Made by a program: the position numbers and the translations under genes. From NCBI GenBank assembly GCA_034432445.1, contig DAOUBX010000124.1:8571-72570 (forward strand): a DNA stretch of 64,000 nt, in the 5' to 3' direction. Numbering within the stretch: the first letter of the stretch is position 1; the number at the start of each line of letters is the position of its first letter. Positions 4,685 through 57,598 of this stretch are shown piece by piece. The notes under the pieces were generated by a model. The model worked only from the letters and a program-made list of their open reading frames with translations, did not search any database and was not told where the DNA came from. Source of the stretch: Anaerolineales bacterium (GTDB lineage Bacteria > Chloroflexota > Anaerolineae > JAAEKA01).

Positions 4685-5983
4685 ATGGCGGAGATCGAGG
4701 CGTTGAAAAGCGCAGCTGCGGTCTTGGGCGCGGCCTTTGCCCGTCAGCGCGCAGAGATGGCGGAGCGTCAACAGCGCCTGCTGGCCGAAACCCTGCGCGA
4801 CACCGCCCTGGCCCTCACCAGCACCCTCAGCTTCGAGGAGCTGGTCGATCGCGTGTTGGCCAACGCGCAGCGCTTGGTGCCCAGCGACGCGGCCAGCATC
4901 TTCTTGGTGGAGGGGGATGTGGCGCGCGTGGTGCGCACACGCAGCTATGCCGAGCGCGGACTGGAAGAGATGACGCTGTCCATGGCTTTCCGCATCGCCG
5001 ACAACTATAACCTGGCCACCATGGTCGCCACCCGCCAGCCGTGCATGATCCGCGACGTGTGGGCGGTAGACGGCTGGCTTGACCTGCCCACCTCACACTG
5101 GATAGGCTCGTATTTGGGCGCGCCGATCGAGATAGACGGGGAGGTCATCGGTTTTCTGAATCTGGATTTTGCCGAGCGCGACGCGGTGCCGCCTGAGGGC
5201 CCCCGGCTGTTGCAAGCCTTCGCTGCCCAGGCCGGCGCCGCCTTGGCCAACGCACGGCTTTACCAAGCCCTGGAGGCCCAGGTTGATCGCGCCCGGCAGC
5301 TGACCCTCGACCTGATGCGCGCCCAAGAGGCCGAGCGCCAGGTAGTGGCCCGCGAGCTGCATGACGAGATGGGCCAGGCCTTGACCGCGCTGCAGCTGAA
5401 CTTGGGCGCGCTGCACCGCAGCCTGGCCGGCGCCGCGGACGCCCGCAGCCTGGAGCGCCTGGCCGAGGCGCGCTGGCTGGCCGAAGAGACGCTCGGCCGC
5501 ACGCGCGCGCTATCGCTGGACCTGCGGCCGCCTGCGCTGGACGACCTCGGCCTTGTCCCCGCGGTTCGCTGGTATTTGGATCAGTTCGGTCAACGTAGCG
5601 ATCGAGTGGTGAGCTTTCACGTCAGCGGGGAAGAGCAGCCGATACCTCCGGCTACGGCGCTGGCTCTTTATCGCATTCTGCAAGAAGCCACTACCAACAT
5701 CGGCCGTCATGCGCACGCCGGCCGCGTGGACGTGACGCTGGACTGTGTCGCCGACGCTGTGCGCCTGCAGATCAACGACGACGGGCAGGGCTTCGATCTG
5801 GCGGCCCTGGAAGCGGCCGGCAGCCTGCACCGCAGCTCCGGGCTGCTGGGTATGCGGGAGCGCGCGGCTGCCTTGGGCGGCGAGTGTGTTATCTCTTCGC
5901 AGCCCGGCCATAGCACGCGCGTACACGTGCGTATTCCGGTGGTGGAGACGACACGAATTGTTGCCCATAAGAGTAACGGCTGA
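4685..5983 (+). CDS. GAF-domain sensor histidine kinase (HisKA_3 + HATPase_c, NarL-type partner)
   Basis: It has a GAF-like N-terminal region, the H-box ARELHDEMGQALTAL, and N/G boxes (ILQEATTNIGRHA, DDGQGF, GLLGMRERA). Confidence 0.85.
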   Translation: MAEIEALKSAAAVLGAAFARQRAEMAERQQRLLAETLRDTALALTSTLSFEELVDRVLANAQRLVPSDAASIFLVEGDVARVVRTRSYAERGLEEMTLSMAFRIADNYNLATMVATRQPCMIRDVWAVDGWLDLPTSHWIGSYLGAPIEIDGEVIGFLNLDFAERDAVPPEGPRLLQAFAAQAGAALANARLYQALEAQVDRARQLTLDLMRAQEAERQVVARELHDEMGQALTALQLNLGALHRSLAGAADARSLERLAEARWLAEETLGRTRALSLDLRPPALDDLGLVPAVRWYLDQFGQRSDRVVSFHVSGEEQPIPPATALALYRILQEATTNIGRHAHAGRVDVTLDCVADAVRLQINDDGQGFDLAALEAAGSLHRSSGLLGMRERAAALGGECVISSQPGHSTRVHVRIPVVETTRIVAHKSNG

Positions 5984-6345
5984 TGAAAGTTAAGAAAATG
6001 CTCCGGCAATAGCCGCTTGCGGCGGGTCGCCCCTTATGTGAGCCTGCCCGGCGACACCTGCACTTGCAGCGCAGATGCAAGTGTGAATCGACCGGGCTAT
6101 CAAACGGCGCCCCGTCAACGGGGCTGAAAGACGCGCCATGCACGCGCGAGCCCGTTTCAACGGGCGCTGCTATGTAGCCGGGGAACTTCATTCCCCGGCG
6201 AGATAGCATGAGGGCGAGCTCCGCTCCATTGCCGGAATATTATCTTAAGCTTCATAAGCCGTTACTACGAAGGAGTGGCGCGTGCAGGTACGCATTCCGG
6301 TGGCGGAGACGACACGAATTGCTACGTACAAGAGTAACGGCTGAA
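5921..6345. repeat. Two ~60-bp near-identical direct copies of the kinase gene 3' end (5921-5983 and 6281-6345) flanking a ~300-bp palindrome-rich insert
   Basis: Both copies encode R-V-H/Q-V-R-I-P-V-V/A-E-T-T-R-I...K-S-N-G-stop and are identical at about 50 of 60 nt. The insert between them carries the hairpins CACTTGCAgcgcagaTGCAAGTG, GCCCCGTcaaCGGGGC, GCCCGTTtcaACGGGC and CCGGGGAacttcattCCCCGG. Confidence 0.7.
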
Positions 6346-6367
6346 GCCGTTACTACGAAGGGCACCG

Positions 6368-7015
6368 ATGGCACCTATTCGCGTTTACCTGGTGGATGAC
6401 CACCCCATTGTGCGCAAGGGGCTGCGCGCCCTGCTCGAGGAACAGACCGACATGATGGTGGTCGGCGAGGCGGGCAGCGGACAGCAGGCCGTCAGCGCAG
6501 CGCTGGCCGCGCGGCCGGACGTGGTCGTCATGGACATCAGCATGCCGGACATCAACGGCATCGAGGCCACGCGGCAACTGAGCGGCCAGACGCGGGTGGT
6601 CATCCTGAGCGTGCACAGCAGCCGGGACTACGTTCGGCAGGCGCGGCGCGCCGGCGCTATCGGCTACGTCATCAAGGACGCGGTCTTGACCGACCTAGTA
6701 GCTGCAGTGCGCGCTGCAGCATCCGGCCAAAGCTTCCTCAGCCCCGCTATCTCCACATTGCTCATCGAAGAGTACGTGCGTTATAGCGAACTGGCTGCTG
6801 AATGCGATCCCCTGAATGCCCTCACTCCTCGCAAACGCCAGGTGCTGCAATTGGTAGCCCAGGGTCACACCACCCGTGAGATTGCGGCCCTGCTCACCCT
6901 CAGCCCCAAGACGGTCGAGATCCACCGCGGCAACGCCATGAAGAAGCTGGACCTGCATAGCACAGCCGACGTGGTGCGCTTCGCCCAGCGCCACGGGCTA
7001 TTGGTTGAGCCATAG
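6368..7015 (+). CDS. NarL/FixJ-family response regulator (REC + LuxR-type HTH)
   Basis: The receiver starts VYLVDDHPIVRKGL; the C-terminal LuxR HTH reads LTPRKRQVLQLVAQGHTTREIAALLTLSPKTVEIHR. Confidence 0.9.
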   Translation: MAPIRVYLVDDHPIVRKGLRALLEEQTDMMVVGEAGSGQQAVSAALAARPDVVVMDISMPDINGIEATRQLSGQTRVVILSVHSSRDYVRQARRAGAIGYVIKDAVLTDLVAAVRAAASGQSFLSPAISTLLIEEYVRYSELAAECDPLNALTPRKRQVLQLVAQGHTTREIAALLTLSPKTVEIHRGNAMKKLDLHSTADVVRFAQRHGLLVEP

Positions 7016-7212
7016 ACGCCTCAACCACACCCCAGCGCCCGGTACCTCAACAGAGATCTCTTGCCCGCATGTCGCTAGGGAACTCTGGCAATTTTGCTCG
7101 TCACTAATGCGAATTTGGGGGCAATTGAACGAAAAATAGGGGCCTCCCCTGATGTCCTCCCGCCCTGTGGCAGCGCGATACTGAACCATGGCTTCCGCGC
7201 GGATGGCTCGCC

Positions 7213-7599
7213 ATGCTCAAAGTTCTGATCGTTGATCCCAACCCCTACTTCATTCGCTGCCTACGCGCCATCCTGGCAGCCCGGACGGACCTGATCGTGG
7301 TCGGCGAGGCCTGCAGCGCCGCGGAGGCGCGGGCCAAGGCGCACACCTTGCGTCCAGACCTGGCGTTGGTAGACGTGCGCACGCCGGGGCTGGGCAGCGG
7401 CTTGTATGCTCGTCATTTGAAGCAGTGGCTGCCGGCCGGCAGGATCATCGCCTTGACCGTCTTCGACGCTGCGCCCTACCGCGCCGTCCTGGCCGCCGAC
7501 GGCGTGGATGAGTGCCTGGCCAAGGAGACGTTGGAAGGGGAGCTGCTGCCGACGCTCGCCCGCCTGTTTCCACAGCAGGTGGCGCAGGGCAGAACCTAG
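7213..7599 (+). CDS. stand-alone CheY-like receiver-domain protein
   Basis: The 128-aa protein has VLIVDPNPYF...LALVDVRTPG in a receiver-like fold with no output domain. Confidence 0.6.
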   Translation: MLKVLIVDPNPYFIRCLRAILAARTDLIVVGEACSAAEARAKAHTLRPDLALVDVRTPGLGSGLYARHLKQWLPAGRIIALTVFDAAPYRAVLAADGVDECLAKETLEGELLPTLARLFPQQVAQGRT

Positions 7600-11010: not shown

Positions 11011-13458
11011 ATGCCGGGGAAGCGGATAGCTAGGTGGTTAGGGATCGGCGGCATCGTGCTGCTGATCGTGCTAGCGGCAGTGCTCTTTTTCAGCCAAACT
11101 CAGCGCGGCCAGCCCGCTGCGCCGAGCCAGGCCGCGCCGCTGCCGGTGGTCACGGCGCCGGTGGAGCTGCTGGCCATGCCCGACGCCGGCAGCGCAGCAC
11201 TGCTGCAGGCCATCGACACCGCCGAGAGCAGCATCCGCCTCAAGATCTACCTGATCACCGATGAGGCCGTGGTGGAGGCATTGGGTCGCGCCGTGCAGCG
11301 CGGGGTGAACGTGCGCGTGCTGATCGAGGAGGCGCCCTACGGCGGCGGGGAGACCAACGCGCTGGCGACACAGGCGCTGCAGTCCGCCGGCGTGGACGTG
11401 CGCGGCCGGCCGGGCGTCTTCGTCTACAGTCACGAGAAGAGCCTAGTGGTGGACGACCGCCGCGCCTTCATCATGACGCACAACTTGACCCGCTCTTCCT
11501 TTGAGCGCAACCGAGAGTACGCGGTGATCGTCGACGATCCGGCCGTGGTGACGGAAGTGGCGCGGGTGTTCGACGCCGACTGGGAGCGCATCGAGCCAGA
11601 CCTGAGCGGGGCGCAGCTGGTGTGGAGCCCGGTCAACAGCCGGCCGCGCATCGCCGCCTTGATCGACAGCGCCCGAGTCAGCCTGGACGTGCAGCACACG
11701 TCGCTGCAGGACCCGGAGCTGATCGGCCGGCTGGCCGCCGCAGCCAGGCGCGGCGTCAGCGTGCGCGTGACCACGCCGGCCATCTACGACCCCGCCGAGT
11801 CGGAGTACGGCGCCATCGACGAGCTGTTTGCCGCCGGCGTGGCCATTCGCTTCCTGGACGAGCCCTACGTCCACGCCAAGGCAATGATCGCCGACGGCCG
11901 GCTGGCCATGGTTGGCTCGCAGAACTTGACCACCAACTCGCTGGAGAACAACCGCGAGCTGGGCATTATCTTCGACGACGCGGCCGCGGTGAACCAGTTG
12001 GCCGGTTACTTCCTGCGCGATTGGAACGCCGCCAAGCCGTGGGCCGGCCCGCAGCCCACGGCCACGCTGCCGGCCGGCGACGTCCTGCGCTGGGACCAGG
12101 TCGCCGGCTACGTGGGCCAGACCGTGACCGTCGAAGGCGATGTGATCGACACTTACGACAGCGGCAAGGTCACCTTTCTCAACTTCGACGAGGACCGCAC
12201 CTTCACCGTCGTGATCTTCGCCAGCGCTTACCCGGCCTTTCCTCAGCCGCCGGAGGACCTGTACTATCGCAAGCGGGTGCGGGTCACCGGCCAGATCAAG
12301 CTTTATCAGGACCGGCCGGAGATCATCGTCGAGTCGCCGGAGGCCATCGAAGTGGTGGCGGACCTGCTGGCGACGCGTGGCCAGCCACCGCCTACGCCTC
12401 CGGCCGACGGCGTGATCGACTGGCGCGAGGCCGGCCAGTACATCGGCCAACGGCTGGCCGTCGAGGGCGACGTCGTGCGCGTCTATAACAGCGGCAAGGC
12501 CGCCTTCCTCAACTTCGCGCAGGACTACCGCGGCCAGTTCTCGGTCGTGATCTTCGCCTCCGACTTCGACCGGTGGCCGCAGCCGCCCGAGCAGGTCTAC
12601 CTAGGCCAACGCGTGCGGGTGTCGGGCAAGATCAAGGAGTACCAGGGCGCGCCGGAGATCGTGGTCGAGTCGCCGGAGCAGATCGACATCCTGGGCCCGG
12701 CGGCAACGGCCACGCCGGATGCCGTGGCAGCCGAGCGGTCGGCGCCGGTCGACCTCGCCATCACCGTCCCGCCCACGGCCACCCTGCCCATCTCGTCCAC
12801 CGCAGCCATCACGCCCACCGCCAACCCCACACCCGCCGCCACGGCTACGCCGCTTCCGGTCATCCCCTGGCAGCAGGCCGCGGCCTACGAGGGCCAGGAG
12901 GCCACGGTGGAGGGCGTGGTGGTGGACAGCTACAAGTCCAACTCGGTGATCTTCCTCAACTTCAGCGAAGACCGCAGCGCCTTCAAGGCCGTGATCTTCC
13001 GCCGCGATTGGAGCAAGTGGCCGCAGTCGCCGGAGCTGCTGCTGCGGGGCGCAACGGTGCGCGTCAGCGGGCCGGTGCAGCTCTACCAGGGCGCGCCGGA
13101 GATCATCGTCGACGACCCGGCGCAGATCGAGGTCGTTGCCCCGCCGCCCACGCCCGCCGCGCCGCCGCCCTCGGCGCCCGTCCCCTGGCAAGAGGCGGCC
13201 GCCTACGCAGGTCAACGCGTCACGGTCGAGGGCGTGGTGGTGGACACCTACAAGTCGGACAAGGTGATCTTCCTCAACTTCGGCCCCCGCCGCAGCGACT
13301 TCAAGGTCGTGATCTTCGCCAGCGCCTGGGATCGTTGGCCGCAAACGCCCGATGCGCTCTACGACGGCAAGCGCCTGCACGTCACCGGCCAGGTCAAGCT
13401 CTACAACGGCGCGCCGGAGATCATCGTGGACGAGCCGGGGCAGATCGGTGAGCGGTGA
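11011..13458 (+). CDS. membrane-anchored phospholipase-D-family (2x HKD) protein with four C-terminal tandem OB-fold (BOF/tRNA_anti-like) repeats; putative extracellular nuclease
   Basis: An N-terminal TM helix is followed by two HxKx4D motifs (HEKSLVVD, HAKAMIAD...GSQN). Four ~95-aa repeats W..A.Y.GQ.VTVEG.V...Y.S.K..FLNF...F..VIF...WPQ.P..Y.G..V.V.G.I..YQGAPEI.V..P.QI are separated by PT-rich linkers. Confidence 0.75.
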   Translation: MPGKRIARWLGIGGIVLLIVLAAVLFFSQTQRGQPAAPSQAAPLPVVTAPVELLAMPDAGSAALLQAIDTAESSIRLKIYLITDEAVVEALGRAVQRGVNVRVLIEEAPYGGGETNALATQALQSAGVDVRGRPGVFVYSHEKSLVVDDRRAFIMTHNLTRSSFERNREYAVIVDDPAVVTEVARVFDADWERIEPDLSGAQLVWSPVNSRPRIAALIDSARVSLDVQHTSLQDPELIGRLAAAARRGVSVRVTTPAIYDPAESEYGAIDELFAAGVAIRFLDEPYVHAKAMIADGRLAMVGSQNLTTNSLENNRELGIIFDDAAAVNQLAGYFLRDWNAAKPWAGPQPTATLPAGDVLRWDQVAGYVGQTVTVEGDVIDTYDSGKVTFLNFDEDRTFTVVIFASAYPAFPQPPEDLYYRKRVRVTGQIKLYQDRPEIIVESPEAIEVVADLLATRGQPPPTPPADGVIDWREAGQYIGQRLAVEGDVVRVYNSGKAAFLNFAQDYRGQFSVVIFASDFDRWPQPPEQVYLGQRVRVSGKIKEYQGAPEIVVESPEQIDILGPAATATPDAVAAERSAPVDLAITVPPTATLPISSTAAITPTANPTPAATATPLPVIPWQQAAAYEGQEATVEGVVVDSYKSNSVIFLNFSEDRSAFKAVIFRRDWSKWPQSPELLLRGATVRVSGPVQLYQGAPEIIVDDPAQIEVVAPPPTPAAPPPSAPVPWQEAAAYAGQRVTVEGVVVDTYKSDKVIFLNFGPRRSDFKVVIFASAWDRWPQTPDALYDGKRLHVTGQVKLYNGAPEIIVDEPGQIGER

Positions 13459-13470
13459 ACAGTGAACGGT

Positions 13471-13512
13471 GAACGGGGGGGGAATATGCGGAGACTATTT
13501 GCCCCCCCGTTC
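13471..13512 (+). terminator. G8/C7 hairpin immediately downstream of the PLD-family gene stop
   Basis: GAACGGGGGGGG-19 nt-CCCCCCCGTTC forms an 11-bp stem. There is no U-tract. Confidence 0.4.
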
Positions 13513-26995: not shown

Positions 26996-29900
26996 ATGAC
27001 ACCATCGCCTGTTGACGCACGCCATTCCAGCCGCTGGCTGGTCACGTTGCTGCTGCTGTTCATCCTGCTGGCCGGCTTTGCCCTGCGCGTGTTCCACGTG
27101 GACTACGCCGACGGCCAGTTGCCCCATCCCGACGAACGGTCGACCGTCGCCTTCTACGCGCCGACCATCCGCTGGCCGGCCGAGGGCATCAGCCCGCTGG
27201 ACAAGCGCCAATCGCCGTTGAACCCGTTGTGGAGCGTGGAACGACAGGAGCGGCGCAGCTACACCTACGGTCACTTTCCGCTCTATCTGCTCGTCCTCAC
27301 CGCCAACGCGGCGCACGAGCTGGCGCCGGTCGCCGAACGGCTGGGCGCCTCGCCGGAGCTGGTGCAAAGGCTGCGCACGGCCAACGGGGTGCCGGGCTTC
27401 GCCGTGGTCGGCCGGGTGATCATGGCCGTGGCCGACACGGCCACCGTGCTGCTGATCTTCTTGCTGGCCGACCGCATCTACGGCCGACGGCGTGGGCGCT
27501 GGTGGCCCGGCCTGCTGGCCGCTGCCTTCTCGGCCTTCACCGTGCTGCAAATCCAGCTCAGCCACTTTTTCGCCGTCGACCCGATCAGCACGACGTTTAC
27601 GGTGTTGGCGCTGTACGGCGCGCTGCGCATGGTGGAGGCGGGGCGGGGGAGCGGAAAGGAAGGAAAAGAAGGAAAGAAGGGAAACGGAGGGAAAGAGGGA
27701 AAGGAGGGCACTGGCGGGCGCGGCGGGGCTGGCGCGGCTTGGGCGGTGGTGTGCGGGATTGGCGCGGGGTTGGCGATTGCCTCCAAGTTCAGCGCGCTGC
27801 CGATCTTGGCGGCGCCGGTGGTGGCCGGCTTTCTGATCTGGTGGCGCGCACGCCGGGCCGAGCCGGAGGTCGACGAGGAGCGCGCCGGCCTGGGCGCAGC
27901 GCTGCTGTGGCCGCTGCTGGCGCTGGGCGTGGCCGTGCTCACGTTTGTCGTCACCTCGCCCTTTGCCATCCTCGATTGGGCGAATTTCCGCCAGGCTGTG
28001 TTGGTGGAACAGGGCGCGATGGTGCAGGGCAAGGCCGACTTCCCCTTTACGCGGCAGTATCGCGGCACGCTGCCCTACCTATATTTCATCGAGCAGCAAA
28101 TCCGCTGGGGCATCGGCTGGCCGCTGGGCATCCTGGCCTTTGCGGGCCTGGCCTGGGCACTGCTCAAGCTCCTCATCGGTCGCGGCGAGGACGGCGAGAT
28201 CGTCATCCTGAGCTGGATCGTGCCCTACTTCGGCCTGACCGGCCTCTTCCTGGCCAAGTTCATGCGCTACATGGTCCCGGTGACGCCGCTGCTGATGGTT
28301 TTTGCTGCCGGCCTGGTGGCGGCGATTTGGTATGGCGAGGTGTTGGGAAGGCGGGAGCGGAGGCAAAGGAAGGAAACGCGGGAAAGTAGGGAAACGAAGG
28401 AAACCAGGGAAATGAGGGAAAGCGGGGAAAGGGAAGGAATGAAGGGGGCGGAAGAGGGAGAGCTGGCGCTGCTCACGGTGGACGACAGCGCGCCGTCGTC
28501 GGCGAGTGTGCCGGAGCCAGAAGCGCTGTCCCCGGCCGGCGAGCCGGAACCCACCTCACCCCCTGCCGACTACCAACCACCGCTCACCGCTGACCGTTCA
28601 CCGGCCACCGTTCACCGTTCACCGGCCACCGTTCACCGTTCACCGGTCACCGGTCACCGATCACCGGTCACCGTTCACCGTTCACCGGCCACCCTCCGCC
28701 GCGCCCTCGCCTTCGCCATCGCCGCCATCGCCCTGCTCGGCGCGCTCTTCTGGTCCCTGGCCTACGTCAACGGCGTCTACAACAACACGCATCCCTGGAT
28801 CAAGGCCAGCCGCTGGATCTACGCCAACGTGCCCGACGGCTCGACCATTGCCTGGGAGCAGTGGGACGACTCGCTGCCCTACGATCTGCCGGAGCCGAAC
28901 TCCAACCGCGGTCGCTATCGCTTCATCGACTGGGGCCCCTTCGAGGAGGACCGCGCCGAGAAGTTCGAGTGGCTCAAGAGCACGTTGCGCACCGCCGACT
29001 ACCTCGTGCTGTCCTCCAACCGCATCTACGGCGCCGTGGACAACCTACCGGAGCGCTATCCGCTCACCAACCGCTACTACGAGCTGCTCTTCGACGGTCA
29101 ACTGGGCTACGAGCTGGCGCTGAAGGAGGAGAACCGGCCCAATCTCTTCGGCATCGTGGTCGACGACGAGCACGCCGACGAGAGCTTCACCCTCTACGAC
29201 CATCCCACGGTACACGTCTTCCGCAAGGTGCGCGACCTGAGCGACGCCGAGTGGGACGCGCTGCTGGGCGGCAGTTGGGAGGGCGCCCAAGCGTGGTACG
29301 TGGGTGAGCCGCTGCTGATCAGCCGCATCTTCGCCTTGTTCGGCGACGAACAGGGACAGCCCGCCCCGCGCGAGCCCGGCCCCGGCGAGGGACGCAGCCT
29401 GCTGCTGGATCGGCCGCTGGACGAGCTGCCGGTGGTGCAGGATTTCCGCTGGAACGGCCTCGCCAGCCGGTCTCCCCTGCTCGCAGCCCTGGGCTGGTGG
29501 CTGGCCATCAGCGTAATCGGCCTGGCGGCGTGGCCGATCAGCTTTGCCCTGTTCACCAACCTGCGCGACCGAGGGTTTCTGCTCGCGCGCAGCCTGGGCT
29601 GGCTGATCATGGGCTGGGTGGTGTGGATGGCCGCCAGCCTGCGCATCGGCCGCAACGCCTTGCCGTTCATCGTGGCCGCGCTGCTCGGCATGGCAGCCGT
29701 GTCCATCCTCCTCTGGCGACGCAACCGCGACGAGATGGGCGCCTTCGTGCGGGTGCACAAGCGCATTTTGCTGTTCGGCGAGGCGCTGTTCGCCCTCGCC
29801 TACGCTTTCTTCGTTCTGATCCGCCTCTTCAACCCCGACATCTGGCAGCCCTGGAACGGCGGCGAGAAGTTCATGGAGTTCGCCTTCCTCAACGCCATCC

Positions 29901-32257
29901 TGCGCAGCGCCTACATGCCGCCCATCGACCCTTACTTCGCCGGCGGCACCATCAACTACTACTACTACGGCCACTACCTGGTCAACCTGCTGGTCAAGCT
30001 CACCGGCATCTGGTCGTCCGTGGCCTTCAACCTGGCCATCCCCACCGTGTTCGCGCTGACGGTAGCCAACGTGTTCAGCCTGGGCTATAACCTCGCCGGC
30101 CGGATGAAGCGGGCGCCGGGTGGCGCCGAACGGCCCCACGCCGGCCCTGGGCCAGAGGCGGCGCCGGCTGCCCCCCTCCAGGCCGGCGCCAGCTCGGCTC
30201 GGTTAGAAGAGCCGGACTTACCCCGCAGCGCAGAAATCACCGACGACCAACCACCGATCACCGATCACCGATCACCGTTCACCGATCCGGGGTCACCGTT
30301 CACCGATCCGGGGTCACCGATCACCGATCACCGTTCACCGTTCACCGACCACCGCCTGCTGCGCCCGCGCTGGCTGTGGCACGGGGTGAGCGGCGCGCTG
30401 TTGGCAGTGTTCTTCGTGGCGCTGCTGGGCAACGTGGACGGCGGCGGGCAGGTCCTGCGCAGCCTGGCGCAGCAGTCCCCCAGCAGCTTCAGCAGCAACC
30501 TGCCCGGCGTGCAGACGGCGGTGCGCGCGCTCAGCGGCTTCTGGCATGTGGCGACCACAGCGGCCACCCTGCCCGGCTACCGCTATTGGGACCCCAGCCG
30601 CGTGATCCCCTATACGATCAACGAGTTCCCCTACTGGAGCTTCCTCTTCGCCGACCTGCATCCGCACATGATCGCCATCCCGTTCACGGTGCTCTTCCTG
30701 GCCCTGGCTTACAACTTGCTGGCCGGCTATGGGCAGGGGACGGCGTTGCCGGCGAGCCGTGCTTCCCGGCGGCAGCAGGTCAGCTATTGGCTGCGCAGGC
30801 TGACGGGCAATGGGCTGTACGTAGCGATGGCTCTCAACCTGGGCGCGCTGGCCGTGATCAACACCTGGGACCTGCCCACCTATTTCGGCCTGGCCGTGTT
30901 GGCCTGGCTGGTGCGCGAGTGGCGGTCAGGGCAGTTCAGCGCCGCGCCTGGCCGCGCCCTGCTGCGCACCTTGCTCTTCGCCGGCGGCCTGGGCGTCCTG
31001 TCCATTGCCCTCTACCTGCCCTTCTTCCAGCACTACCAGCCCCTGGCCAGCAGCGGCGTCGGCATCGTCAAAACCAAGACCGAGCTGGGCCTCTGGCTGA
31101 ACATGTGGGGCTTCCTCTTCTTCGCTGCGCTCACGTTCGTTCTGGTTGAGCTGCGCCGCCGACCGCCCAGCCGGTGGCCCGAGGATCCGGCCATCGTGCG
31201 TTGGCTGCGCTTAGCACTGGATCACTTCGCCCGGCTCGGCCGAGCCTTGGCTTTGAGCAAGGCCGGCAGTGTCCGCTTAGGATCAGTGGCCACGACAGCG
31301 CTGCTTCTGCTGGCGGTCGGGCTGCTGGCAACGGCGGCGCTGTGGCTCCTGGGCTTCAAGGTGCCGGCGTTGCTGGTGTTGCCGTTGGCCGCGGCCGGTC
31401 TGCTGCTCTTGCGGCGCAGCGCCACCCCCGAAAACCTGTTCATCGCCATCCTGACCTTCACCGGTCTGCTGGTGCTGCTCGGCGTGGAGTTCGTGTACCT
31501 CAAGGACCACCTGCAGGGCGGCGACTGGCGGCGCATGAATACCCTGTTCAAGTTCTACATCCAGGTGTGGGTCATGCTGGCGCTGGCCGGCGGGGTAGCC
31601 TTGCCGCGCATCTGGGACTTCGTCCAGGGACGCTGGCGGCGCGGCTGGCGCATCGCCTGGTCCGTGGCGTTCGGCTGGCTGCTGCTGCTTTCCCTGGCCT
31701 TTCCGCTCTTTGGCACGCCGGCGCGGCTGGACGACCGCTTCCCGCCGGAAAACGGCCGGCCCCCCATCAGCACGCTGGACGGCATGGCCTACATGGAGCC
31801 GGGCACGTACACCTGGCACCCTGACCCGCAACAAGCGCCCAACACGCGCATCGAGCTGCGCCATGACTACGACGCCCTGCGCTGGCTGCTCGACAACGTG
31901 GAAGGTGCGCCGGTCGTGGCCGAGGCCGTGATCGGCTACTACCGCGAGGGCGGCCTGCGTGTGGCCAGCTTCACCGGCTTTCCCACCTTGCTCGGCTTTC
32001 ACCAGGAGGGGGAGCAGCGCTACGGCTGGCAAACCGGGCCACGCCGCGGCCGGGCCGAGGAGTTTTGGACCACCGTCGATCCGCAACGCGCCCAACAGCT
32101 CATCAACGAGCTGGACATCGACTACATCTACGTCGGCCAGCTCGAGCGCATCGTCTACTCGCCTGAAGCCCTGGCTAAGTTCGACCAGCTCGTGCAACAG
32201 GGCGTGCTGGAGATCGTCTACCGCAACGACGGCGTGGTCATCTATCGCGTGCTGTAG
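26996..32257 (+). CDS. giant polytopic membrane protein, Chlor_Arch_YYY (TIGR03662/DUF2298) two-copy class with PMT/GT-C-like N-terminal region
   Basis: There are dozens of TM helices. The first YYY motif is SYTYGHFPLYLL and the second is INYYYYGHYLVNLL, next to EKFMEFAFLNAILRS. Low-complexity insertions are present (KEGKEG..., RESRETKETRE..., HRSPVTV... repeats). Confidence 0.8.
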   Translation: MTPSPVDARHSSRWLVTLLLLFILLAGFALRVFHVDYADGQLPHPDERSTVAFYAPTIRWPAEGISPLDKRQSPLNPLWSVERQERRSYTYGHFPLYLLVLTANAAHELAPVAERLGASPELVQRLRTANGVPGFAVVGRVIMAVADTATVLLIFLLADRIYGRRRGRWWPGLLAAAFSAFTVLQIQLSHFFAVDPISTTFTVLALYGALRMVEAGRGSGKEGKEGKKGNGGKEGKEGTGGRGGAGAAWAVVCGIGAGLAIASKFSALPILAAPVVAGFLIWWRARRAEPEVDEERAGLGAALLWPLLALGVAVLTFVVTSPFAILDWANFRQAVLVEQGAMVQGKADFPFTRQYRGTLPYLYFIEQQIRWGIGWPLGILAFAGLAWALLKLLIGRGEDGEIVILSWIVPYFGLTGLFLAKFMRYMVPVTPLLMVFAAGLVAAIWYGEVLGRRERRQRKETRESRETKETREMRESGEREGMKGAEEGELALLTVDDSAPSSASVPEPEALSPAGEPEPTSPPADYQPPLTADRSPATVHRSPATVHRSPVTGHRSPVTVHRSPATLRRALAFAIAAIALLGALFWSLAYVNGVYNNTHPWIKASRWIYANVPDGSTIAWEQWDDSLPYDLPEPNSNRGRYRFIDWGPFEEDRAEKFEWLKSTLRTADYLVLSSNRIYGAVDNLPERYPLTNRYYELLFDGQLGYELALKEENRPNLFGIVVDDEHADESFTLYDHPTVHVFRKVRDLSDAEWDALLGGSWEGAQAWYVGEPLLISRIFALFGDEQGQPAPREPGPGEGRSLLLDRPLDELPVVQDFRWNGLASRSPLLAALGWWLAISVIGLAAWPISFALFTNLRDRGFLLARSLGWLIMGWVVWMAASLRIGRNALPFIVAALLGMAAVSILLWRRNRDEMGAFVRVHKRILLFGEALFALAYAFFVLIRLFNPDIWQPWNGGEKFMEFAFLNAILRSAYMPPIDPYFAGGTINYYYYGHYLVNLLVKLTGIWSSVAFNLAIPTVFALTVANVFSLGYNLAGRMKRAPGGAERPHAGPGPEAAPAAPLQAGASSARLEEPDLPRSAEITDDQPPITDHRSPFTDPGSPFTDPGSPITDHRSPFTDHRLLRPRWLWHGVSGALLAVFFVALLGNVDGGGQVLRSLAQQSPSSFSSNLPGVQTAVRALSGFWHVATTAATLPGYRYWDPSRVIPYTINEFPYWSFLFADLHPHMIAIPFTVLFLALAYNLLAGYGQGTALPASRASRRQQVSYWLRRLTGNGLYVAMALNLGALAVINTWDLPTYFGLAVLAWLVREWRSGQFSAAPGRALLRTLLFAGGLGVLSIALYLPFFQHYQPLASSGVGIVKTKTELGLWLNMWGFLFFAALTFVLVELRRRPPSRWPEDPAIVRWLRLALDHFARLGRALALSKAGSVRLGSVATTALLLLAVGLLATAALWLLGFKVPALLVLPLAAAGLLLLRRSATPENLFIAILTFTGLLVLLGVEFVYLKDHLQGGDWRRMNTLFKFYIQVWVMLALAGGVALPRIWDFVQGRWRRGWRIAWSVAFGWLLLLSLAFPLFGTPARLDDRFPPENGRPPISTLDGMAYMEPGTYTWHPDPQQAPNTRIELRHDYDALRWLLDNVEGAPVVAEAVIGYYREGGLRVASFTGFPTLLGFHQEGEQRYGWQTGPRRGRAEEFWTTVDPQRAQQLINELDIDYIYVGQLERIVYSPEALAKFDQLVQQGVLEIVYRNDGVVIYRVL
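28581..28700 (+). repeat. in-frame tandem heptamer repeats (CACCGTT/CACCGGT/CACCGAT) encoding (H/D)RSP(A/V)T(V/G) units inside the YYY gene
   Basis: caccgttcaccggccaccgttcaccgttcaccggtcaccggtcaccgatcaccggtcaccgttcaccgttcaccggccacc. Confidence 0.85.
30251..30352 (+). repeat. second in-frame heptamer-repeat block (CACCGAT/CACCGTT with a GATCCGGGGTCACCGTT variant) inside the same gene
   Basis: It encodes PPITDHRSPFTDPGSPFTDPGSPITDHRSPFTDHR. Confidence 0.85.
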
Positions 32258-32263
32258 TGTGCG

Positions 32264-32290
32264 CACCACGATCTTGGAAGATCGTGGTAC
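32264..32290 (+). terminator. 10-bp perfect stem hairpin just after the YYY-1 stop
   Basis: CCACGATCTTggaAGATCGTGG; there is no U-tract. Confidence 0.35.
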
Positions 32291-32356
32291 AAGCGCGATG
32301 CTCGCAGGCTCTACCATCAACCAATCTACCAATCTGCTCTACCAACCCACCCATCC

Positions 32357-35089
32357 ATGTTGCCACTCCTTGCCTTCTGGCTCATCACTCAGTTGTTCAC
32401 CCTAGCCGCGTGGCCGCTGGCCTGGCGGCTGTTCGCAGCCTTGCCCAGCCGCGGCTATGCCCTGGCCAAGCCGCTGGGGCTGCTCCTGGTCACCTACGTG
32501 CTGTGGCTGGCCGGTAGCCTGGGCTTCCTGCGCAACAGCGCGGGCGGCATCCTCTTCAGCTGGGTCGTTGTGGCGGCGGTCTCGCTGTGGCTAGGCCGGG
32601 CTGGTTGGCAGCGCGACGCAACCGGCCGACGGCCCTGGTTGGTCTGGCTGGCGGCCAACAAGCGGCTGATAGTCGTCACCGAGCTGCTGTTCTTCGTCGC
32701 GTTGGCCGGCTGGGCACTGGTGCGCAGCTACAGCCCGGAGATCACCACGGCCGGCGGCGAGAAGTTCATGGAGCTGACCTTTCTCAACGGCATCCTGCGC
32801 AGCGAGCAGTTCCCCCCCCTCGACCCCTGGCTCTCCGGCTTTGCCATTAGCTACTACTACTTCGGCTACGTCATGCTGGCTGCGCTCACGCGGCTCAGCG
32901 GGCTGGCTGCCGGCGTCGCCTTCAACGTCGGCCTGGCCACGTGGTTTGCCCTGACACTGACGGCCGCCTTCGGCGTCGCCTTTGACATGGCCGCTGCGCT
33001 CCTGGCCCGCGCTTCCGTTCCACCCGCCGCCGCGGCCTCCCAATCTCCCAATCTACCACCTTCCCAATCTCCCAGTCCACCCGCCACTGCGGCGTCCCCC
33101 TCCGCCTACGTTGCCGGCCTGCTCGGCGCGCTCTTCGTCGGCGTGGTGAGCAACCTGGTAGGCTTTCTCGAGTCGCTGCACAACCTGGGCGTGGGCCCGC
33201 TGGCCTTCTGGCGCTGGCTGGACATCAAAGACCTGAACTGCCTGGGCGGGGCGACCTACACCGAGCCGATCGCCAACTGCCCCAGCCCTGGCGGCCTGCT
33301 ACCCGACCGTTTCTTCTGGTGGTGGCGCGCCAGCCGCGTGATCAACGATCGCGATCTGTTAGGCCACGCCGTGGAAGTGATCGACGAGTTCCCCTTCTTC
33401 AGCTTTCTGCTCGGCGACATGCATCCGCACGTGCTGGCGCTTCCCTTCGTGCTGCTGGCCGTCGGTCTGGCGTTGGCGCTGGTGCTGCGCGGGGGAGAGG
33501 AAAAGCTGGGAAAGGAGGGAAAGGAAGGAAACGTGGGCCGAGCGGGCGTCCATCGAGAAGGCGGCGTAGCAGGACTGTCACCGGCCACCGGCCACCGGTC
33601 ACCGGTTACCGGTCACCGGTCTCCGGTCACCGGCCTCCTCAGCGCCTTCCCCCTGGGCGCGGTCGGCTTCGTGCTCTACGCTCTCTGCCTGGGCGGGCTG
33701 GCCTTCCTGAACACGTGGGACTTTCCCATCTACGTCTTCTTGGTGACCTTGGCGCTGGGCGCAGGGTTGGCCTGGCGGCAGGGCGGGCTGAGCTGGGGTG
33801 TGGCCGGACGGGCGCTGCTGGGCGGTTTTGCCCTGGGCGTGGCCGGCGTCGTGCTGTACCTGCCCTTCTACATCGGCTTCCAATCACAGGCCGGCGGCAT
33901 CCTGCCCAATTTCATCTTCCCCACCCGGCTGGCGCAGTTCTTGGTCATGTTCGGGCCGTTGTTGGCAGCCGCAATCTTCTTGTTGCTCGCCCTGAGCACT
34001 GACCGCCGCAACGTGCTGCGGAGCTGGCTGCGCTTCTTTTTGCTAACCGTGCTTGCGCCCATCGCCTTTCTGCTGATCATGCTCATCGTCGGCGTGGCCA
34101 CGCCCGGCGGCCAGGAGCTCATCAGCCGGCTGCGCGACCTGCCCGTGGTGCGCGAGCAAGTGGGCGACGCCTCGCTGGGACAGATCGTTGCGCAAGTGCT
34201 CAGGCTGCGTCTCGGCAGCCCGTGGACCTACCTGCTGCTCGCCGGCCTGCTCGCCTGGGTGCTCGCCTTGCTGGCCCTGTGGGTGCGCGCCTTGGCCAGC
34301 CCCCAACGCCAAGACACCCAATCTACCACTTCACCAAATCTACCAGTCCACCACTCCCCTCCCGTCGCCTTCGCGCTGTTGGCCCTCCTCACCGCCTTTT
34401 TGCTCACGTTCAGCGTGGAGTTCGTCTACCTGCGCGACACCTTTGGTGTGCGCATGAACACGGTGTTCAAGTTCTACTACCAGGCCTGGGTGTTGCTGGC
34501 GCTGGTGGCGGCCTTCGCCGTGGTCTATCTGGCCCACTTTGCCGGCCGCTGGCTGCGCGGCGTGGGGTTGACCGTCATCGGCCTGTTGACGGTCGCCGGG
34601 CTGTTCTACCCCGTGTTTGCCACCTACACCCGCGCTGAGCAGTTCGCGCGGCCGCCTACGCTCGACGGCACGGCCTACCTGGCGCGCGATAACCCCGACG
34701 ACGCAGCCGCCATCGCGTGGCTGCGCGCCAACGTGCCGGGCACGGCCACCGTGCTAGAAGCTCCCGGCGGTTCCTACTCGTACTTCGGCCGCATCTCCGC
34801 CCAGACCGGCCTGCCCACCTTGCTCGGTTGGGACGGACACGAGCTCCAGTGGCGCGGCAACACGGTCGAGCAAGACAAGCGACGGCCCGACATCGACCGC
34901 ATCTACCGCAACGCCCAGGGCGCCGAGCTGCAGCGGCTGCTCGAGACCTGGCAGATCGACTACGTGATGGTCGGCGAGCTGGAGCGGCAGACCTATGGCA
35001 TTTCGCCGCAGTCCGAAGCGCGTTTTGCCCGCGCCATGGACCTGGTGTACGATGGCGGTACTGTGCGCATCTACCGGCGTCGCGGCTAA
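32357..35089 (+). CDS. polytopic membrane protein, Chlor_Arch_YYY (TIGR03662/DUF2298) single-copy class
   Basis: EKFMELTFLNGILRSEQFPPLDPWLSGFAISYYYFGYVMLAAL. It carries the same kinds of simple-sequence insertions (KEGKEG, HRSPVTG x2, SQSPNLPP). Confidence 0.8.
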   Translation: MLPLLAFWLITQLFTLAAWPLAWRLFAALPSRGYALAKPLGLLLVTYVLWLAGSLGFLRNSAGGILFSWVVVAAVSLWLGRAGWQRDATGRRPWLVWLAANKRLIVVTELLFFVALAGWALVRSYSPEITTAGGEKFMELTFLNGILRSEQFPPLDPWLSGFAISYYYFGYVMLAALTRLSGLAAGVAFNVGLATWFALTLTAAFGVAFDMAAALLARASVPPAAAASQSPNLPPSQSPSPPATAASPSAYVAGLLGALFVGVVSNLVGFLESLHNLGVGPLAFWRWLDIKDLNCLGGATYTEPIANCPSPGGLLPDRFFWWWRASRVINDRDLLGHAVEVIDEFPFFSFLLGDMHPHVLALPFVLLAVGLALALVLRGGEEKLGKEGKEGNVGRAGVHREGGVAGLSPATGHRSPVTGHRSPVTGLLSAFPLGAVGFVLYALCLGGLAFLNTWDFPIYVFLVTLALGAGLAWRQGGLSWGVAGRALLGGFALGVAGVVLYLPFYIGFQSQAGGILPNFIFPTRLAQFLVMFGPLLAAAIFLLLALSTDRRNVLRSWLRFFLLTVLAPIAFLLIMLIVGVATPGGQELISRLRDLPVVREQVGDASLGQIVAQVLRLRLGSPWTYLLLAGLLAWVLALLALWVRALASPQRQDTQSTTSPNLPVHHSPPVAFALLALLTAFLLTFSVEFVYLRDTFGVRMNTVFKFYYQAWVLLALVAAFAVVYLAHFAGRWLRGVGLTVIGLLTVAGLFYPVFATYTRAEQFARPPTLDGTAYLARDNPDDAAAIAWLRANVPGTATVLEAPGGSYSYFGRISAQTGLPTLLGWDGHELQWRGNTVEQDKRRPDIDRIYRNAQGAELQRLLETWQIDYVMVGELERQTYGISPQSEARFARAMDLVYDGGTVRIYRRRG
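33577..33634 (+). repeat. in-frame heptamer repeats (CACCGGY) inside YYY-2
   Basis: caccggccaccggccaccggtcaccggttaccggtcaccggtctccggtcaccgg encodes ATGHRSPVTGHRSPVTG. Confidence 0.85.
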
Positions 35090-49560: not shown

Positions 49561-49750
49561 AACTACTCAGCCATAGGTGCCGGGCATTTGGATTCTAACC
49601 TAAAAGTCGCTCGGGCCGGTCTCCGACCGTGCCCGCCGCGCTTTCATTGACGGTTGTGCGCCCAGCGCATGGGCATCTGGTTTGCAAGCGTGTCTGCGAA
49701 GCCAACCTAGGTCGCAAATCGCCTACAAATGCCCGGCACCTGAGCAGTTA
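49561..49750. mobile_element. candidate MITE-like element or long structured RNA: ~25-bp imperfect terminal inverted repeats around a ~135-nt core
   Basis: The left arm is TAACTACTCAGccatagGTGCCGGGCATTTG (49561-49590). The right arm CAAATGCCCGGCACCTGAGCAGTTA (49726-49750) is its reverse complement except for the 6-nt insert. Confidence 0.35.
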
Positions 49751-56287: not shown

Positions 56288-57481
56288 TCAGCGATCACGA
56301 GCGGGCATCCACTGGGTGTGCGCTTGCGCCTGCGCCGCTTCGTAGACCAACCGAACAGGCACGCCGTAGGCCTCGGCCAGGCGGCGGCAATCCTCGAACT
56401 CCGGCATCGCTCCCGCAATCTCCGCGCCCAGTCGTTTCAGCTTGACTTGTACCGGGCCGTACTCGGTGTCCACTGTGCGCAGCTCCCGGCCGGCCTCGTG
56501 TCGCCACACCGCATGGACGCGCACGCCCAGCGTTGTCGTCTCGCGCAGGATCAGCTCGGCTAGGCTGACTTCCTGCTCAGGAAACGCCAGGGCGCTCAGG
56601 ATGACCGCGGGCCGCCCCTTTTTCATCTGGATGGGCGTGAGCCACACGTCGCGCGCGCCGGCGGCAAACAAACGCTGGCTGACCGCCTGGTAGAGCTCAG
56701 GGTTCATGTCGTCGATGTTGGTGTCGATCTGGACCATGCGCGGCGCAGGCAAACCGTCTGTCTCATCCGCCTCGCCAAGCCACAGACGAGCTACGTTCGG
56801 CCAGGACAGATCGCGCTGTCCGGCGCCGTAGCCGATGCGCTGCACGCGCATGGCCGGCTGGCGGAACACAGCATGCTGAGCCAGCAGGGCGGCGCCGGTG
56901 GGCGTCACCAATTCGCCGGGGCCGGGCGCGGGCCGTGTGGGCGCTTGGACGCTGGCCAGGATCTCCAACGTGGCCGGAGCGGGCAAGGGCAGCGCACCAT
57001 GGGCCGACTGGGTCCAGCCCGGCCCCAGCGGCACAGACGAGGCGTAGAGGGCGGTGATGCCCAGCGCATGCAGCCCGGCGGCTACGCCGACGATGTCCAC
57101 GATGGCGTCCAGCGCGCCGACCTCGTGAAAGTGAATGTCCTCCAGCGGCAGACCATGCACCTTGGCCTCAGCCGCGGCCAGCCGCGTGAACGTCGCAACG
57201 GCAGCGCTGCGCACCGGCACCGGCAGGTCGCTGGCTTCGATCAGCGTCCGTATCTCGCTCAGGCCGCGGTGATGGTGTGTCTCGGTGGTCTCGACCGTGA
57301 CAAGGGTAGCGGCCAGCGGCCCGCGCAGCACCCGGTCGGCCTGCACCGCCCAGGAACCAGAGGGCAGCGGCAGCCGGCTCAGGCTGGCCAGCAAGGCTTC
57401 CACGGACCAGCCGGCATCGACTAGACAGCCCAAAAACATATCGCCGGACAAGCCGGATGGAAGGTCGAGGTAGGCGATCAT
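56288..57481 (-). CDS. larC: nickel-pincer cofactor nickel insertion protein LarC (DUF111)
   Basis: MIAYLDLPSGLSGDMFLGCL… and the full-length organisation match the LarC family. Confidence 0.75.
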   Translation of the reverse strand: MIAYLDLPSGLSGDMFLGCLVDAGWSVEALLASLSRLPLPSGSWAVQADRVLRGPLAATLVTVETTETHHHRGLSEIRTLIEASDLPVPVRSAAVATFTRLAAAEAKVHGLPLEDIHFHEVGALDAIVDIVGVAAGLHALGITALYASSVPLGPGWTQSAHGALPLPAPATLEILASVQAPTRPAPGPGELVTPTGAALLAQHAVFRQPAMRVQRIGYGAGQRDLSWPNVARLWLGEADETDGLPAPRMVQIDTNIDDMNPELYQAVSQRLFAAGARDVWLTPIQMKKGRPAVILSALAFPEQEVSLAELILRETTTLGVRVHAVWRHEAGRELRTVDTEYGPVQVKLKRLGAEIAGAMPEFEDCRRLAEAYGVPVRLVYEAAQAQAHTQWMPARDR

Positions 57482-57482
57482 G

Positions 57483-57598
57483 GCAATGGTTAACGGTCAA
57501 TGGTTAACGGTCAATGGTTAACGGTTAACGGTCGATGGAAGCGACTCTGCTCACCGTTCACTGTCTACCGATCACCGTTTACTGCTCACAGCACCAGC
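57483..57598. repeat. intergenic tandem repeats (TGGTTAACGGTCAA x3, then GTGAACG/GTGATCG heptamers) between larC and larE
   Basis: caatggttaacggtcaatggttaacggtcaatggttaacggttaacggtcgatgg…caccgttcactgtctaccgatcaccgtttactgctcac; same heptamer family as inside the YYY genes. Confidence 0.8.

Follow-up and report, generated by a model that had tools for sequence, protein, structure and literature searches.

Short tandem repeats in frame within the loops of two DUF2298 membrane-protein genes of an Anaerolineales bacterium, probable passengers of a dispersed repeat family

Introduction

Heptamers are the most over-represented long simple sequence repeats (SSRs) in large genomes of high G+C content, as the work of Mrazek et al. 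(2007) is cited in PMC4692102 and PMC4679880, and the families that have been described, which include the cyanobacterial STRR and the GGGNATC repeats of Xanthomonas and Nostoc, lie mostly no more than 50 nt from a start or stop codon (PMC4692102). Direct repeats of TAACTGA are found in marine Beggiatoaceae, in cyanobacteria and in some Bacteroidetes (MacGregor 2015, PMC4679880); their stop-bearing orientation lies at gene boundaries, and the translatable one lies in variable loops of open reading frames (ORFs), for example as LSVISYQ in an RpoC-like protein (PMC4679880). Rickettsia palindromic elements (RPEs) are selfish DNA lodged within protein-coding genes without breaking the reading frame (Ogata et al. 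2000, as cited in PMC10969869), and hmw1A of Haemophilus influenzae is controlled by 7-bp repeats (PMC8262952). Here we describe three kinds of short tandem repeat, a heptamer, an octamer and a purine-rich 9-nt unit, that are set in frame in two genes for large DUF2298 membrane proteins on contig DAOUBX010000124.1 of an Anaerolineales bacterium (assembly GCA_034432445.1). The window, which is the whole stretch of DNA analysed, is 64,000 nt long.

These repeats are probably members of a long-SSR family that is spread across the lineage and has been filtered into permissive protein loops, where they ride as passengers and do not act as on/off switches. A reading of the window made from the letters alone (the sequence-only reading) had offered two explanations, namely slipped-strand contingency or phase-variation sites, and footprints of a repeat-spreading process tolerated in loop regions. 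The evidence presented below favours the second of these.

Results

Array coordinates were taken from Tandem Repeats Finder (TRF), a regular-expression scan, mismatch searches and a purine scan. All of the arrays named in the sequence-only reading are real and lie within a few bases of where it had placed them, and translation confirmed the peptides it had given (HRSPATV/HRSPVTG, KEGKEG, RETKETRE and SQSPNLP). Its third kind of repeat, described there as a CCAATCTMCCA unit, is in fact the octamer CCAATCTN, which encodes NLPIYQST when intact. Three CACCGNT units in tandem, with up to 2 mismatches, have 30 matches in the window against 0.01 expected from shuffles, and the octamer pair CCAATCTNCCAATCT has 3 matches against 0.15 expected. 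In total, the window holds five heptamer loci and three octamer loci, with TRF copy numbers of 4.4-17 at period 7, 3.4-4.8 at period 8 and approximately 4-8 at period 9. The repeats make up 8.2% of the two DUF2298 genes, and the residues they encode are mostly Pro, Gly, Arg, Ser, Thr and Glu.

Gene 1 (26996..32257, + strand), as called from the ORF list, translation and Pfam, encodes a 1753-aa polytopic membrane protein that combines an N-terminal membrane domain with a DUF2298 ('YYY') domain (aa 871-1528; PF10060, E 5e-128). It hosts two purine arrays and two heptamer arrays, all on the + strand. Purine array 1 (27645..27710; period 9/18/27 nt; TRF and purine scan) encodes GKEGKEGKKGNGGKEGKEG in a loop at aa 217-239, between the hydrophobic segments 141-159 and 244-262; the orthologue on L002, a JGI metagenome contig with a syntenic locus and a gene 1 likewise of 1753 aa, has unrelated sequence at this site. 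Purine array 2 (28345..28464; period 9/18/27 nt) encodes RRERRQRKETRESRETKETREMRESGEREG at aa 450-490, directly after a transmembrane (TM) segment. Heptamer array 1 (28578..28693), with about 16.6 CACCGNT units, encodes (HRSPATV/HRSPVTG)n at aa 528-566 and stops 3 codons short of the next TM segment, and heptamer array 2 (30236..30356), with about 17 units of which two are mutated to CCGGGGT, encodes ITDHRSPFTDPGSPFTDPGSPITDHRSPFTDH in a loop of the DUF2298 domain at aa 1081-1121.

Gene 2 (32357..35089, + strand) encodes a 910-aa DUF2298 paralogue (PF10060, E 2e-113) with a GT-C-like fold (Pfam, AlphaFold and Foldseek), and hosts two octamer remnants, one purine array and one heptamer array, again all on the + strand. 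The first decayed octamer array (33037..33085) encodes SQSPNLPPSQSPSPP in a loop at aa 227-243, which holds NLPIYQST repeats in orthologues and (CCAATCTA)x10 in L002. Purine array 3 (33491..33533; 9-nt unit) encodes GGEEKLGKEGKEGN directly after the TM segment 359-377, in a gap-rich region of the alignment where orthologues have KETSRQVDK, translated from an (GGAGACAA)n octamer. Heptamer array 3 (33577..33634), whose 8 units are mostly CACCGGT or CACCGGC, encodes SPATGHRSPVTGHRSPVTG before the TM segment 433-451; an exact 28-mer flanking it is absent from the JGI metagenome collection. The second decayed octamer array (34313..34353) encodes DTQSTTSPNLPVHH in a loop at aa 653-666, where orthologues have PIYQSTN and, in addition, 39-nt repeats whose copy number is strain-dependent.

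The placement of these arrays follows the topology of the proteins. By hydropathy, each of the eight coding arrays is placed between hydrophobic segments, without overlap, which bears out the suggestion that insertions are tolerated in loops. An AlphaFold model of gene 2 (pTM 0.75) has pLDDT values below 50 at residues 224-240, 392-420 and 647-665, all of them without secondary structure; it is in these segments that the gene-2 arrays fall, and they coincide with gap-rich, unconserved columns in an alignment of 26 orthologues. The first codons of the coding heptamer arrays are 528 and 1081 (of 1753) in gene 1 and 407 (of 910) in gene 2. The dispersed family has structurally permissive, in-frame sites in the loops of the two DUF2298 genes here and in unrelated genes of relatives.

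Comparison with relatives showed a rapid turnover of repeats against a stable protein core. The L002 orthologues are 76% identical overall, with highly conserved TM cores, and differ in repeat content in every repeat loop. In L002 gene 1, an 84-nt repeat (x2.9) replaces purine array 2, whose loop it fills, together with heptamer array 1, and a 36-nt repeat (x3.9) replaces heptamer array 2; the loops of L002 gene 2 hold (ACCGATC)x4.6 besides the octamer array noted above. In the species of the metagenome-assembled genome (MAG) SKYG74 (contigs L121 and L125), the loop of heptamer array 2 holds (TGGTCAA)x18.4, a unit that is found between genes at 57484 in our window. As this single loop carries (CACCGNT)17 in the window, the 36-nt repeat x3.9 in L002 and (TGGTCAA)18 in L121, it has taken up three repeat families in three related genomes. 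Some orthologues also carry HRSP-type arrays in a loop that is free of repeats in the window. The two paralogues of the window, for their part, share the same families in non-homologous loops, and these are independent events and not shared ancestry. The replacement of one repeat family by another in homologous loops lends further support to the repeat-spreading explanation.

Change between close strains was seen as well. Among gene-2 orthologues, proteins that are 99-100% identical (P0009 compared with P0123, and P0032, P0130 and P0133 compared with P0131 and P0132) differ almost only by whole 13-aa (39-nt) units, namely two additional copies of ARSGDRPEQDAEA and the loss of one RSETGPSVKSAGL. 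These changes map to the loop of the 34313 octamer remnant and are direct evidence of strain-level copy-number change. Whole-unit changes between such near-identical strains of relatives were confined to 39-nt repeats, and all were in frame. Between the window and a near-identical Logan assembly (SRR32105349) there are 25 substitutions and 0 indels over 14.7 kb that include four arrays; the gene-2 arrays, heptamer array 3 among them being unchanged, show substitutions only, with no length change where they are assembled through.

These data bear directly on the possibility that the arrays are contingency loci, in which a change of one unit would shift the frame and switch glycosyltransferase-like genes off and on in a subpopulation. 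A 7-nt unit does shift the frame by one, and the alternative frames close 10-263 codons after the arrays, so that truncation would result. Moreover, enzymes of the GT-C type work on the cell envelope, which phase variation commonly targets. The gene-1 orthologue of L121/L125 enters its 18.4-unit, 95%-perfect (TGGTCAA) array (57-201) in one frame and exits in another; however, this mismatch is 56 nt from the contig end, a second assembly (L126) starts inside the array, and short-read assembly would probably not settle the copy number of an array of this length and purity. The frame change may be either a real out-of-frame allele or a copy-number misassembly. Short-read Logan contigs also break inside heptamer arrays 1 and 2 (L120 ends in array 1 at 28622, and L001 starts in array 2 at 30325), but these breaks are accounted for by repeated k-mers, with L120 being 100% identical to the window up to its break, and they carry no information on array heterogeneity. 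Because of them, the 1753-aa gene is fragmented in the SRR32105349 Logan assembly, a practical risk for anyone calling genes in this lineage.

Against switching, the longest perfect period-7 runs in the three coding heptamer arrays are 2.9, 3.7 and 2.9 units, with four unit variants mixed. The arrays lie in mid-gene and not in a promoter or the 5' part; a one-unit change would truncate the protein rather than switch it cleanly, and the longest exact repeats in the two long arrays are of 21 nt, which keeps the frame. The Logan near-strain shows no indel, nearly all full-length orthologues examined are intact, and the same repeats occur in housekeeping genes (GlyRS and PBP1A), in which switching would be lethal. 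A split gene (P0125/P0127) was considered as a case of repeat-mediated frameshift and rejected, its break lying outside any repeat. Taken together, the phase-variation reading is very unlikely for these impure arrays, and the proposal of slipped-strand contingency made from the letters alone is not supported.

Slippage within the long arrays appears to have left a frame-dependent trace. At period 21, the longest exact self-match is 33 nt in heptamer array 1 and 27 nt in heptamer array 2, compared with 13 nt and 19 nt, respectively, at period 7. In the intergenic array at 57484, by contrast, the longest exact self-match is at period 14. This difference is what selection for frame-preserving slippage predicts, in what is a small sample.

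Codon usage indicates the level at which the coding motif is passed on. The Ser codon is TCA in 11 of 13 cases within the arrays, compared with 3.6% of Ser codons elsewhere in the two genes, and G+C at third codon positions is 0.68 in the arrays and 0.89 elsewhere. In addition, degenerate single HRSP units at five orthologous loci retain CAC CGN TCA CCG in 9 of 10 cases. Because of this codon usage, third-position composition and codon retention, the motif would appear to be inherited as DNA and not selected as peptide.

An alternative that makes the peptide the object of selection would have HRSPxT, KEG and NLPIYQST serve as charged anchors on the cytoplasmic side of TM helices, as flexible spacers, or as Ser/Thr/Pro-rich acceptors for the PMT-like glycosyltransferases encoded nearby. 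The arrays do abut TM boundaries, the Lys/Arg-rich ones directly after a helix; an HRSPVT-like unit precedes the same helix in many orthologues of 65-80% identity; and the locus encodes four GT-C/PMT-like proteins. The same DNA units nevertheless occur outside coding sequence and in cytosolic enzymes, orthologues swap in unrelated repeats in the same loop, the array peptides are predicted to be disordered, and the conserved units keep rare, heptamer-derived TCA Ser codons with no drift to preferred synonyms. We consider selected peptide modules extremely unlikely. A protein-level census with a synthetic HRSPxT repeat as query was uninformative on large proteins, returning 38 short (59-120 aa) hypothetical ORFs that are probably miscalled intergenic arrays.

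The coding copies are also restricted in orientation. Tandem CACCGNT and tandem CCAATCTN are free of stop codons in all frames, and on the complementary strand each unit brings a TGA or TAG (a TGA is always present in tandem ANCGGTG), with the consequence that three complement units close all three frames, since 7 and 8 are not multiples of three. The coding arrays, comprising the three heptamer arrays here and both arrays in a relative's non-ribosomal peptide synthetase (NRPS; contig L048, described below), are all in the open orientation, and the stop-bearing orientation sits over two stop codons and before the larC start. Inverted octamer units are also met inside ORFs, and there the TAG is mutated, for example to GGAAGATT or GTAGACTGG, and the unit is read as VDW.

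The non-coding copies of the window cluster at gene ends, lying over the stop of the gene at 11011-13458, over the larE stop, 2 nt before larC and 22 nt before gene 2. It had been suggested that copies of all the repeats recur in intergenic DNA; this is so for the heptamer and the octamer, and the purine scan found no intergenic copy of the purine kind in the window. The heptamer array of about 4.4 units at 13446..13476, which is on the - strand in the CACCGNT orientation and reads CGGTGAA on the + strand, had been placed outside genes at 13455-13477; it in fact overlaps the PLD/OB-fold gene 11011-13458 and supplies its TGA stop, and a G7...C7 hairpin comes after it. The array itself was tested as a hairpin or terminator and rejected, folding no better than shuffles (z = -1.1). 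In the same gene, a TRF repeat of 318 nt x1.8 at 12863-13447 corresponds to the duplicated OB-fold domains of the PLD-like nuclease and is unrelated to the SSRs.

The heptamers given as intergenic at 57483-57598 are indeed located in the larE-larC spacer, where they touch the stop of one gene and the start of the other. A GGTTAAC/GGTCAAT array (57484..57538, - strand; + strand units given; exact period 14 x3.0) reads CCGTTAA/CCATTGA on the coding (-) strand and ends 2 nt before the larC start codon, and a degenerate CACCGTT-like array (57551..57590, + strand), its inverted partner, reads GTGAACG-like on the coding (-) strand and overlaps the larE stop codon. This inverted pair (57484-57590) fills the 104-nt spacer. 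As a functional hairpin it was rejected, the RNA fold being no better than shuffles (z = -1.5). A general explanation of the heptamers by DNA structure fared likewise, in that the CACCGGT-rich array 3 alone folds significantly as a single strand (z = -4.3), array 2 folds worse than shuffles, and two of the three coding heptamer arrays are without a significant hairpin. Purine arrays as inverted partners of the heptamers were also discarded, as their sequences are not complementary, and the whole 64-kb window has no Rfam match.

The third octamer locus of the window, an array of about 3 CCAATCTN units (32310..32335, + strand) with degenerate copies to approximately 32350, is intergenic and lies in the sense orientation ahead of the gene-2 ATG. 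The spacer between genes 1 and 2 (32258-32356, 99 nt) has a strong hairpin at 32262-32290 directly after the gene-1 stop, which is the sole hairpin in its predicted RNA fold, and the repeat leader that follows is unpaired. This leader, in which G is very scarce, consists mostly of octamer units up to the ATG and has no Shine-Dalgarno match. Similarly, heptamer repeats alone precede the larC start at 57481, as the octamer leader precedes gene 2. Within gene 2, a stretch of purine array 3 at 33508-33535 (GGGAAAGGAGGGAAAGGAAGGAAAC) strongly resembles a Shine-Dalgarno sequence, with an in-frame GTG immediately after it (33533-33535), and an internal start at this codon, yielding the C-terminal half of gene 2, is conceivable.

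The families were followed into other genomes, and the arrays turned out not to be confined to this locus. A giant NRPS of the Caldilineales MAG SKYG74 has HRSPFT heptamer arrays in frame in both of its adenylation domains, as well as (ATCAGTG)n encoding LSVISDQ and longer in-frame repeats, and another Caldilineales MAG has eight heptamer arrays on one 6.6-kb contig. For the octamer, a metagenome scan with a query of about three CCAATCTA units (contigs L128-L247) returned at least 120 loci, mostly of 60-70% G+C, and none of those listed was a DUF2298 gene. Of 135 octamer arrays among the matches listed (134 in metagenome contigs, with one from the window added), about 57% lie just 5' of a long ORF in the sense orientation, and about 20% are interior to long open frames. 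In-frame STNLPIYQ insertions were confirmed by Pfam in GlyRS, an SHMT-GcvT fusion, an FtsX permease, a histidine kinase, an HdrA-like protein, PBP1A and PMT_2. The families are dispersed in relatives and occur in frame in unrelated proteins there, as the repeat-spreading explanation had it.

The heptamer was also scanned across genome contigs (L003-L119) at a threshold of at least 4 (CACCGNT)n units. Matches came from many phyla, with 21 of the 117 loci in Gemmatimonadota, 8 of the 117 in Chloroflexota and about a dozen in Streptomyces. Outside Caldilineales, N is usually the same throughout an array, and many arrays lie directly upstream of a long ORF in the sense orientation.

Spacers around the locus can be occupied by such arrays almost completely. 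On contig L124, from another relative, the spacers around the orthologous locus (4768-4913, 6896-6962 and 7072-7236) are almost full of SSR arrays: a 15-mer x9.7 begins at the gene-2 orthologue's stop codon, (GGTGAGC)x9.4 overlaps the stop of the next gene, and (CACCACTC)x20.6 reaches the following start codon.

Two other short elements lie between genes here and have in-frame copies, or apparent ones, in genes of relatives. The 18-mer AAGCCGTTACTACGAAGG is intergenic at 6256-6273 and 6344-6361 in the window, the second copy being preceded by a perfect hairpin, GTAACGGCT-GA-AGCCGTTAC, and it occurs 5x in frame in the SKYG74 NRPS (L048 5967-6296), encoding ...EAVTTKD... within a 156-nt repeat. 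A 67-nt repeat with 85% identity (5917-5983 and 6278-6344) has one copy upstream of the second AAGCCGTTACTACGAAGG, and the other copy overlaps the stop of ORF 4685-5983. CGGTCGGAGACCGGCC, which has a palindrome-like core, is intergenic at 49614-49629 (-) in the window. By back-translation it fits the core of in-frame 39-nt 'RSETGPSVKSAGL' repeats in orthologous DUF2298 loops (RSETGPS/RSGDRP) and, with one extra base that was confirmed in L002 DNA, the 36-nt 'ARSGDRPQQEGE' repeats. Its single copy is weakly above chance, with at least one match in 14 of 100 shuffles at the same mismatch level.

Finally, the host proteins were characterised. A homologue search with gene 2 returned 6534 homologues, and a Foldseek search with its model matched the C-mannosyltransferase DPY19 (E 3e-5) and the C-terminal domain of the oligosaccharyltransferase AglB. 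Downstream of gene 2 lie two more PMT-like GT-C genes, which brings the locus to four GT-C/PMT-like proteins. On the strength of the Pfam PF10060 assignments, the matches of the gene-2 model and the PMT-like neighbours, what had been described as giant membrane proteins are predicted to be glycosyltransferase-like enzymes in a glycosylation-type gene cluster. The G+C content of the window is 59-70%. The nearest relatives of the two proteins are in MAGs labelled Caldilineales, Anaerolineae or Chloroflexota (an NCBI/Logan entry is 100% identical, a JGI contig 81% and a Caldilineales MAG 73%), and both are singletons in their 90% identity clusters. The window itself is from a MAG of Caldilineales-like Chloroflexota.

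Discussion

The explanation we favour is that units of 7, 8 and 9 nt would belong to families dispersed through Caldilineales and Anaerolineae genomes, with arrays that would grow and shrink by replication slippage. Most copies would adjoin genes, as leaders directly 5' of starts or over and after stops, as was seen for the octamer family and for the non-coding copies of the window. Copies that fall within coding sequence would survive only after passing three filters: a stop-free orientation, which follows from the letters of the units; a net length that is a multiple of three; and a position in disordered, alignment-variable loops between transmembrane helices. The outcome would be low-complexity linkers rich in Pro, Gly, Arg, Ser, Thr and Glu, which turn over quickly between species and give at most a variation in loop length. 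A new locus might be seeded de novo from a chance dimer or copied from another locus.

Several points weigh against this explanation. We infer both slippage and the genome-wide density of the repeats from 64 kb and from relatives, and slippage alone leaves the recurrence of the same few units at independent, non-homologous loci unexplained. At least two copies of AGAYTGG, the reverse-complement motif, are found within 200 nt upstream in 14 of 90 octamer arrays among the matches listed and downstream in 0 of 90; this fixed polarity, together with the inverted pair between larE and larC, hints at composite units over simple growth in situ. A single HRSPVT unit before a TM helix is kept in orthologues of only about 65% identity, perhaps because the motif is under selection. 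That CACCGNT is spread widely across taxa was dropped as a sign that the unit is special, there being no control heptamer beside it, and may be ordinary background.

The upstream polarity of inverted octamers also speaks for an origin of the arrays by mobile or templated insertion, that is, from discrete units, often in inverted hairpin-forming pairs, that spread by a transposition-like process or templated repair and decayed later. The same units do recur at non-homologous loops of both paralogues and, in relatives, in unrelated proteins, heptamer arrays form an inverted pair in the larE-larC spacer, and AAGCCGTTACTACGAAGG and CGGTCGGAGACCGGCC are intergenic in the window with in-frame copies, or a back-translation fit, in genes of relatives. 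RPEs, which are inserted in frame in many Rickettsia genes, provide a precedent (PMC10969869). However, we saw neither conserved element ends nor terminal inverted repeats nor target-site duplications, each site has its own array length and mixture of units, and 76 of the 90 octamer arrays among the matches listed have no inverted partner. The inverted spacer folds no better than shuffles and structure is confined to one of the three coding heptamer arrays, and the internal 21-nt and 14-nt duplications are those of local growth. Insertion of this kind is accordingly an unlikely origin of the arrays. It is likewise doubtful that this Chloroflexota lineage seeds 7-8-nt modules, in some cases as inverted pairs of fixed polarity, actively and with respect to orientation into mRNA leaders and into permissive loops of many proteins, essential ones such as GlyRS, PBP1A and NRPS adenylation domains included, with the G-poor leader copies perhaps acting as unstructured ribosome landing sites independent of a Shine-Dalgarno sequence. 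If this were true, SSR arrays would be a systematic source of linkers, an SSR-based counterpart of the Rickettsia palindromic elements, and seeding that is active and not passive would be a new route to the evolution of protein linkers in free-living bacteria.

The reading as a filtered long-SSR family has its own consequences. Biologically, the growth of long SSRs, a genome-wide mutational process, would be leaking into coding sequence with the filters on surviving copies left visible, and the in-frame copies would mark out, as in a natural map, which loops of the uncharacterised DUF2298/GT-C family tolerate insertions. Practically, short-read assemblies are interrupted by the repeats (Logan contigs terminate at both long arrays); the repeats can produce apparent frameshifts in MAG gene calls and spurious short 'hypothetical proteins', and as low-complexity inserts they disturb alignments and domain calls in Chloroflexota proteins.

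Compared with contingency loci, the repeats described here have in common that the unit is not a multiple of three, so that a one-unit change in an ORF shifts the frame. They differ in that contingency tracts are long and perfect, occupy promoters or the ORF's 5' end and vary in length between ON and OFF states, whereas the tracts of the window are interrupted every 2-3 units, lie in mid-gene and have, in arrays 1 and 2, longest exact repeats that preserve the frame. With RPEs they share a dispersed distribution, in frame in unrelated genes, including housekeeping genes, at positions compatible with the fold, with the family also present between genes. RPEs, as the cited account has them, are discrete palindromes of approximately 100-150 bp with a conserved sequence, whereas the repeats here are variable tandem arrays without defined ends, a minority of which are in inverted pairs.

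The likeness to the TAACTGA repeats is closer. In both systems, one orientation closes all frames at gene boundaries and the other is translatable and alone found inside ORFs; arrays often end just before a start or overlap the end of the upstream ORF; related units are mixed; and assemblies break. The (ATCAGTG)n array encoding LSVISDQ in the Caldilineales NRPS (L048) is one base from TCAGTTA. On the other hand, the units of the window are not TAACTGA or a one-base variant of it, the phylum is different, the coding arrays here have 8-17 units in comparison with 2-6, and the octamer in the gene-2 leader is in the translatable and not the stop-bearing orientation.

With the long SSRs and STRR, the repeats share head-to-tail units of 5-11 nt in a large, high-G+C genome of a non-pathogen, a unit family that probably recurs at many loci, copies within about 50 nt of start and stop codons that may overlap stops, and copy numbers that differ between relatives at the species level. 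The units differ, being CACCGNT, GGTCAAT/GGTTAAC and CCAATCTN here, with which G-quadruplexes are impossible, and three of the five heptamer loci of the window are in ORFs, whereas the described families are, according to the accounts cited above, under-represented in coding sequence. In our analysis, the kind of repeat therefore appears to be one already known (long SSRs; compare STRR and TAACTGA), and it is the in-frame occupancy of coding sequence that seems unusually extensive at this locus.

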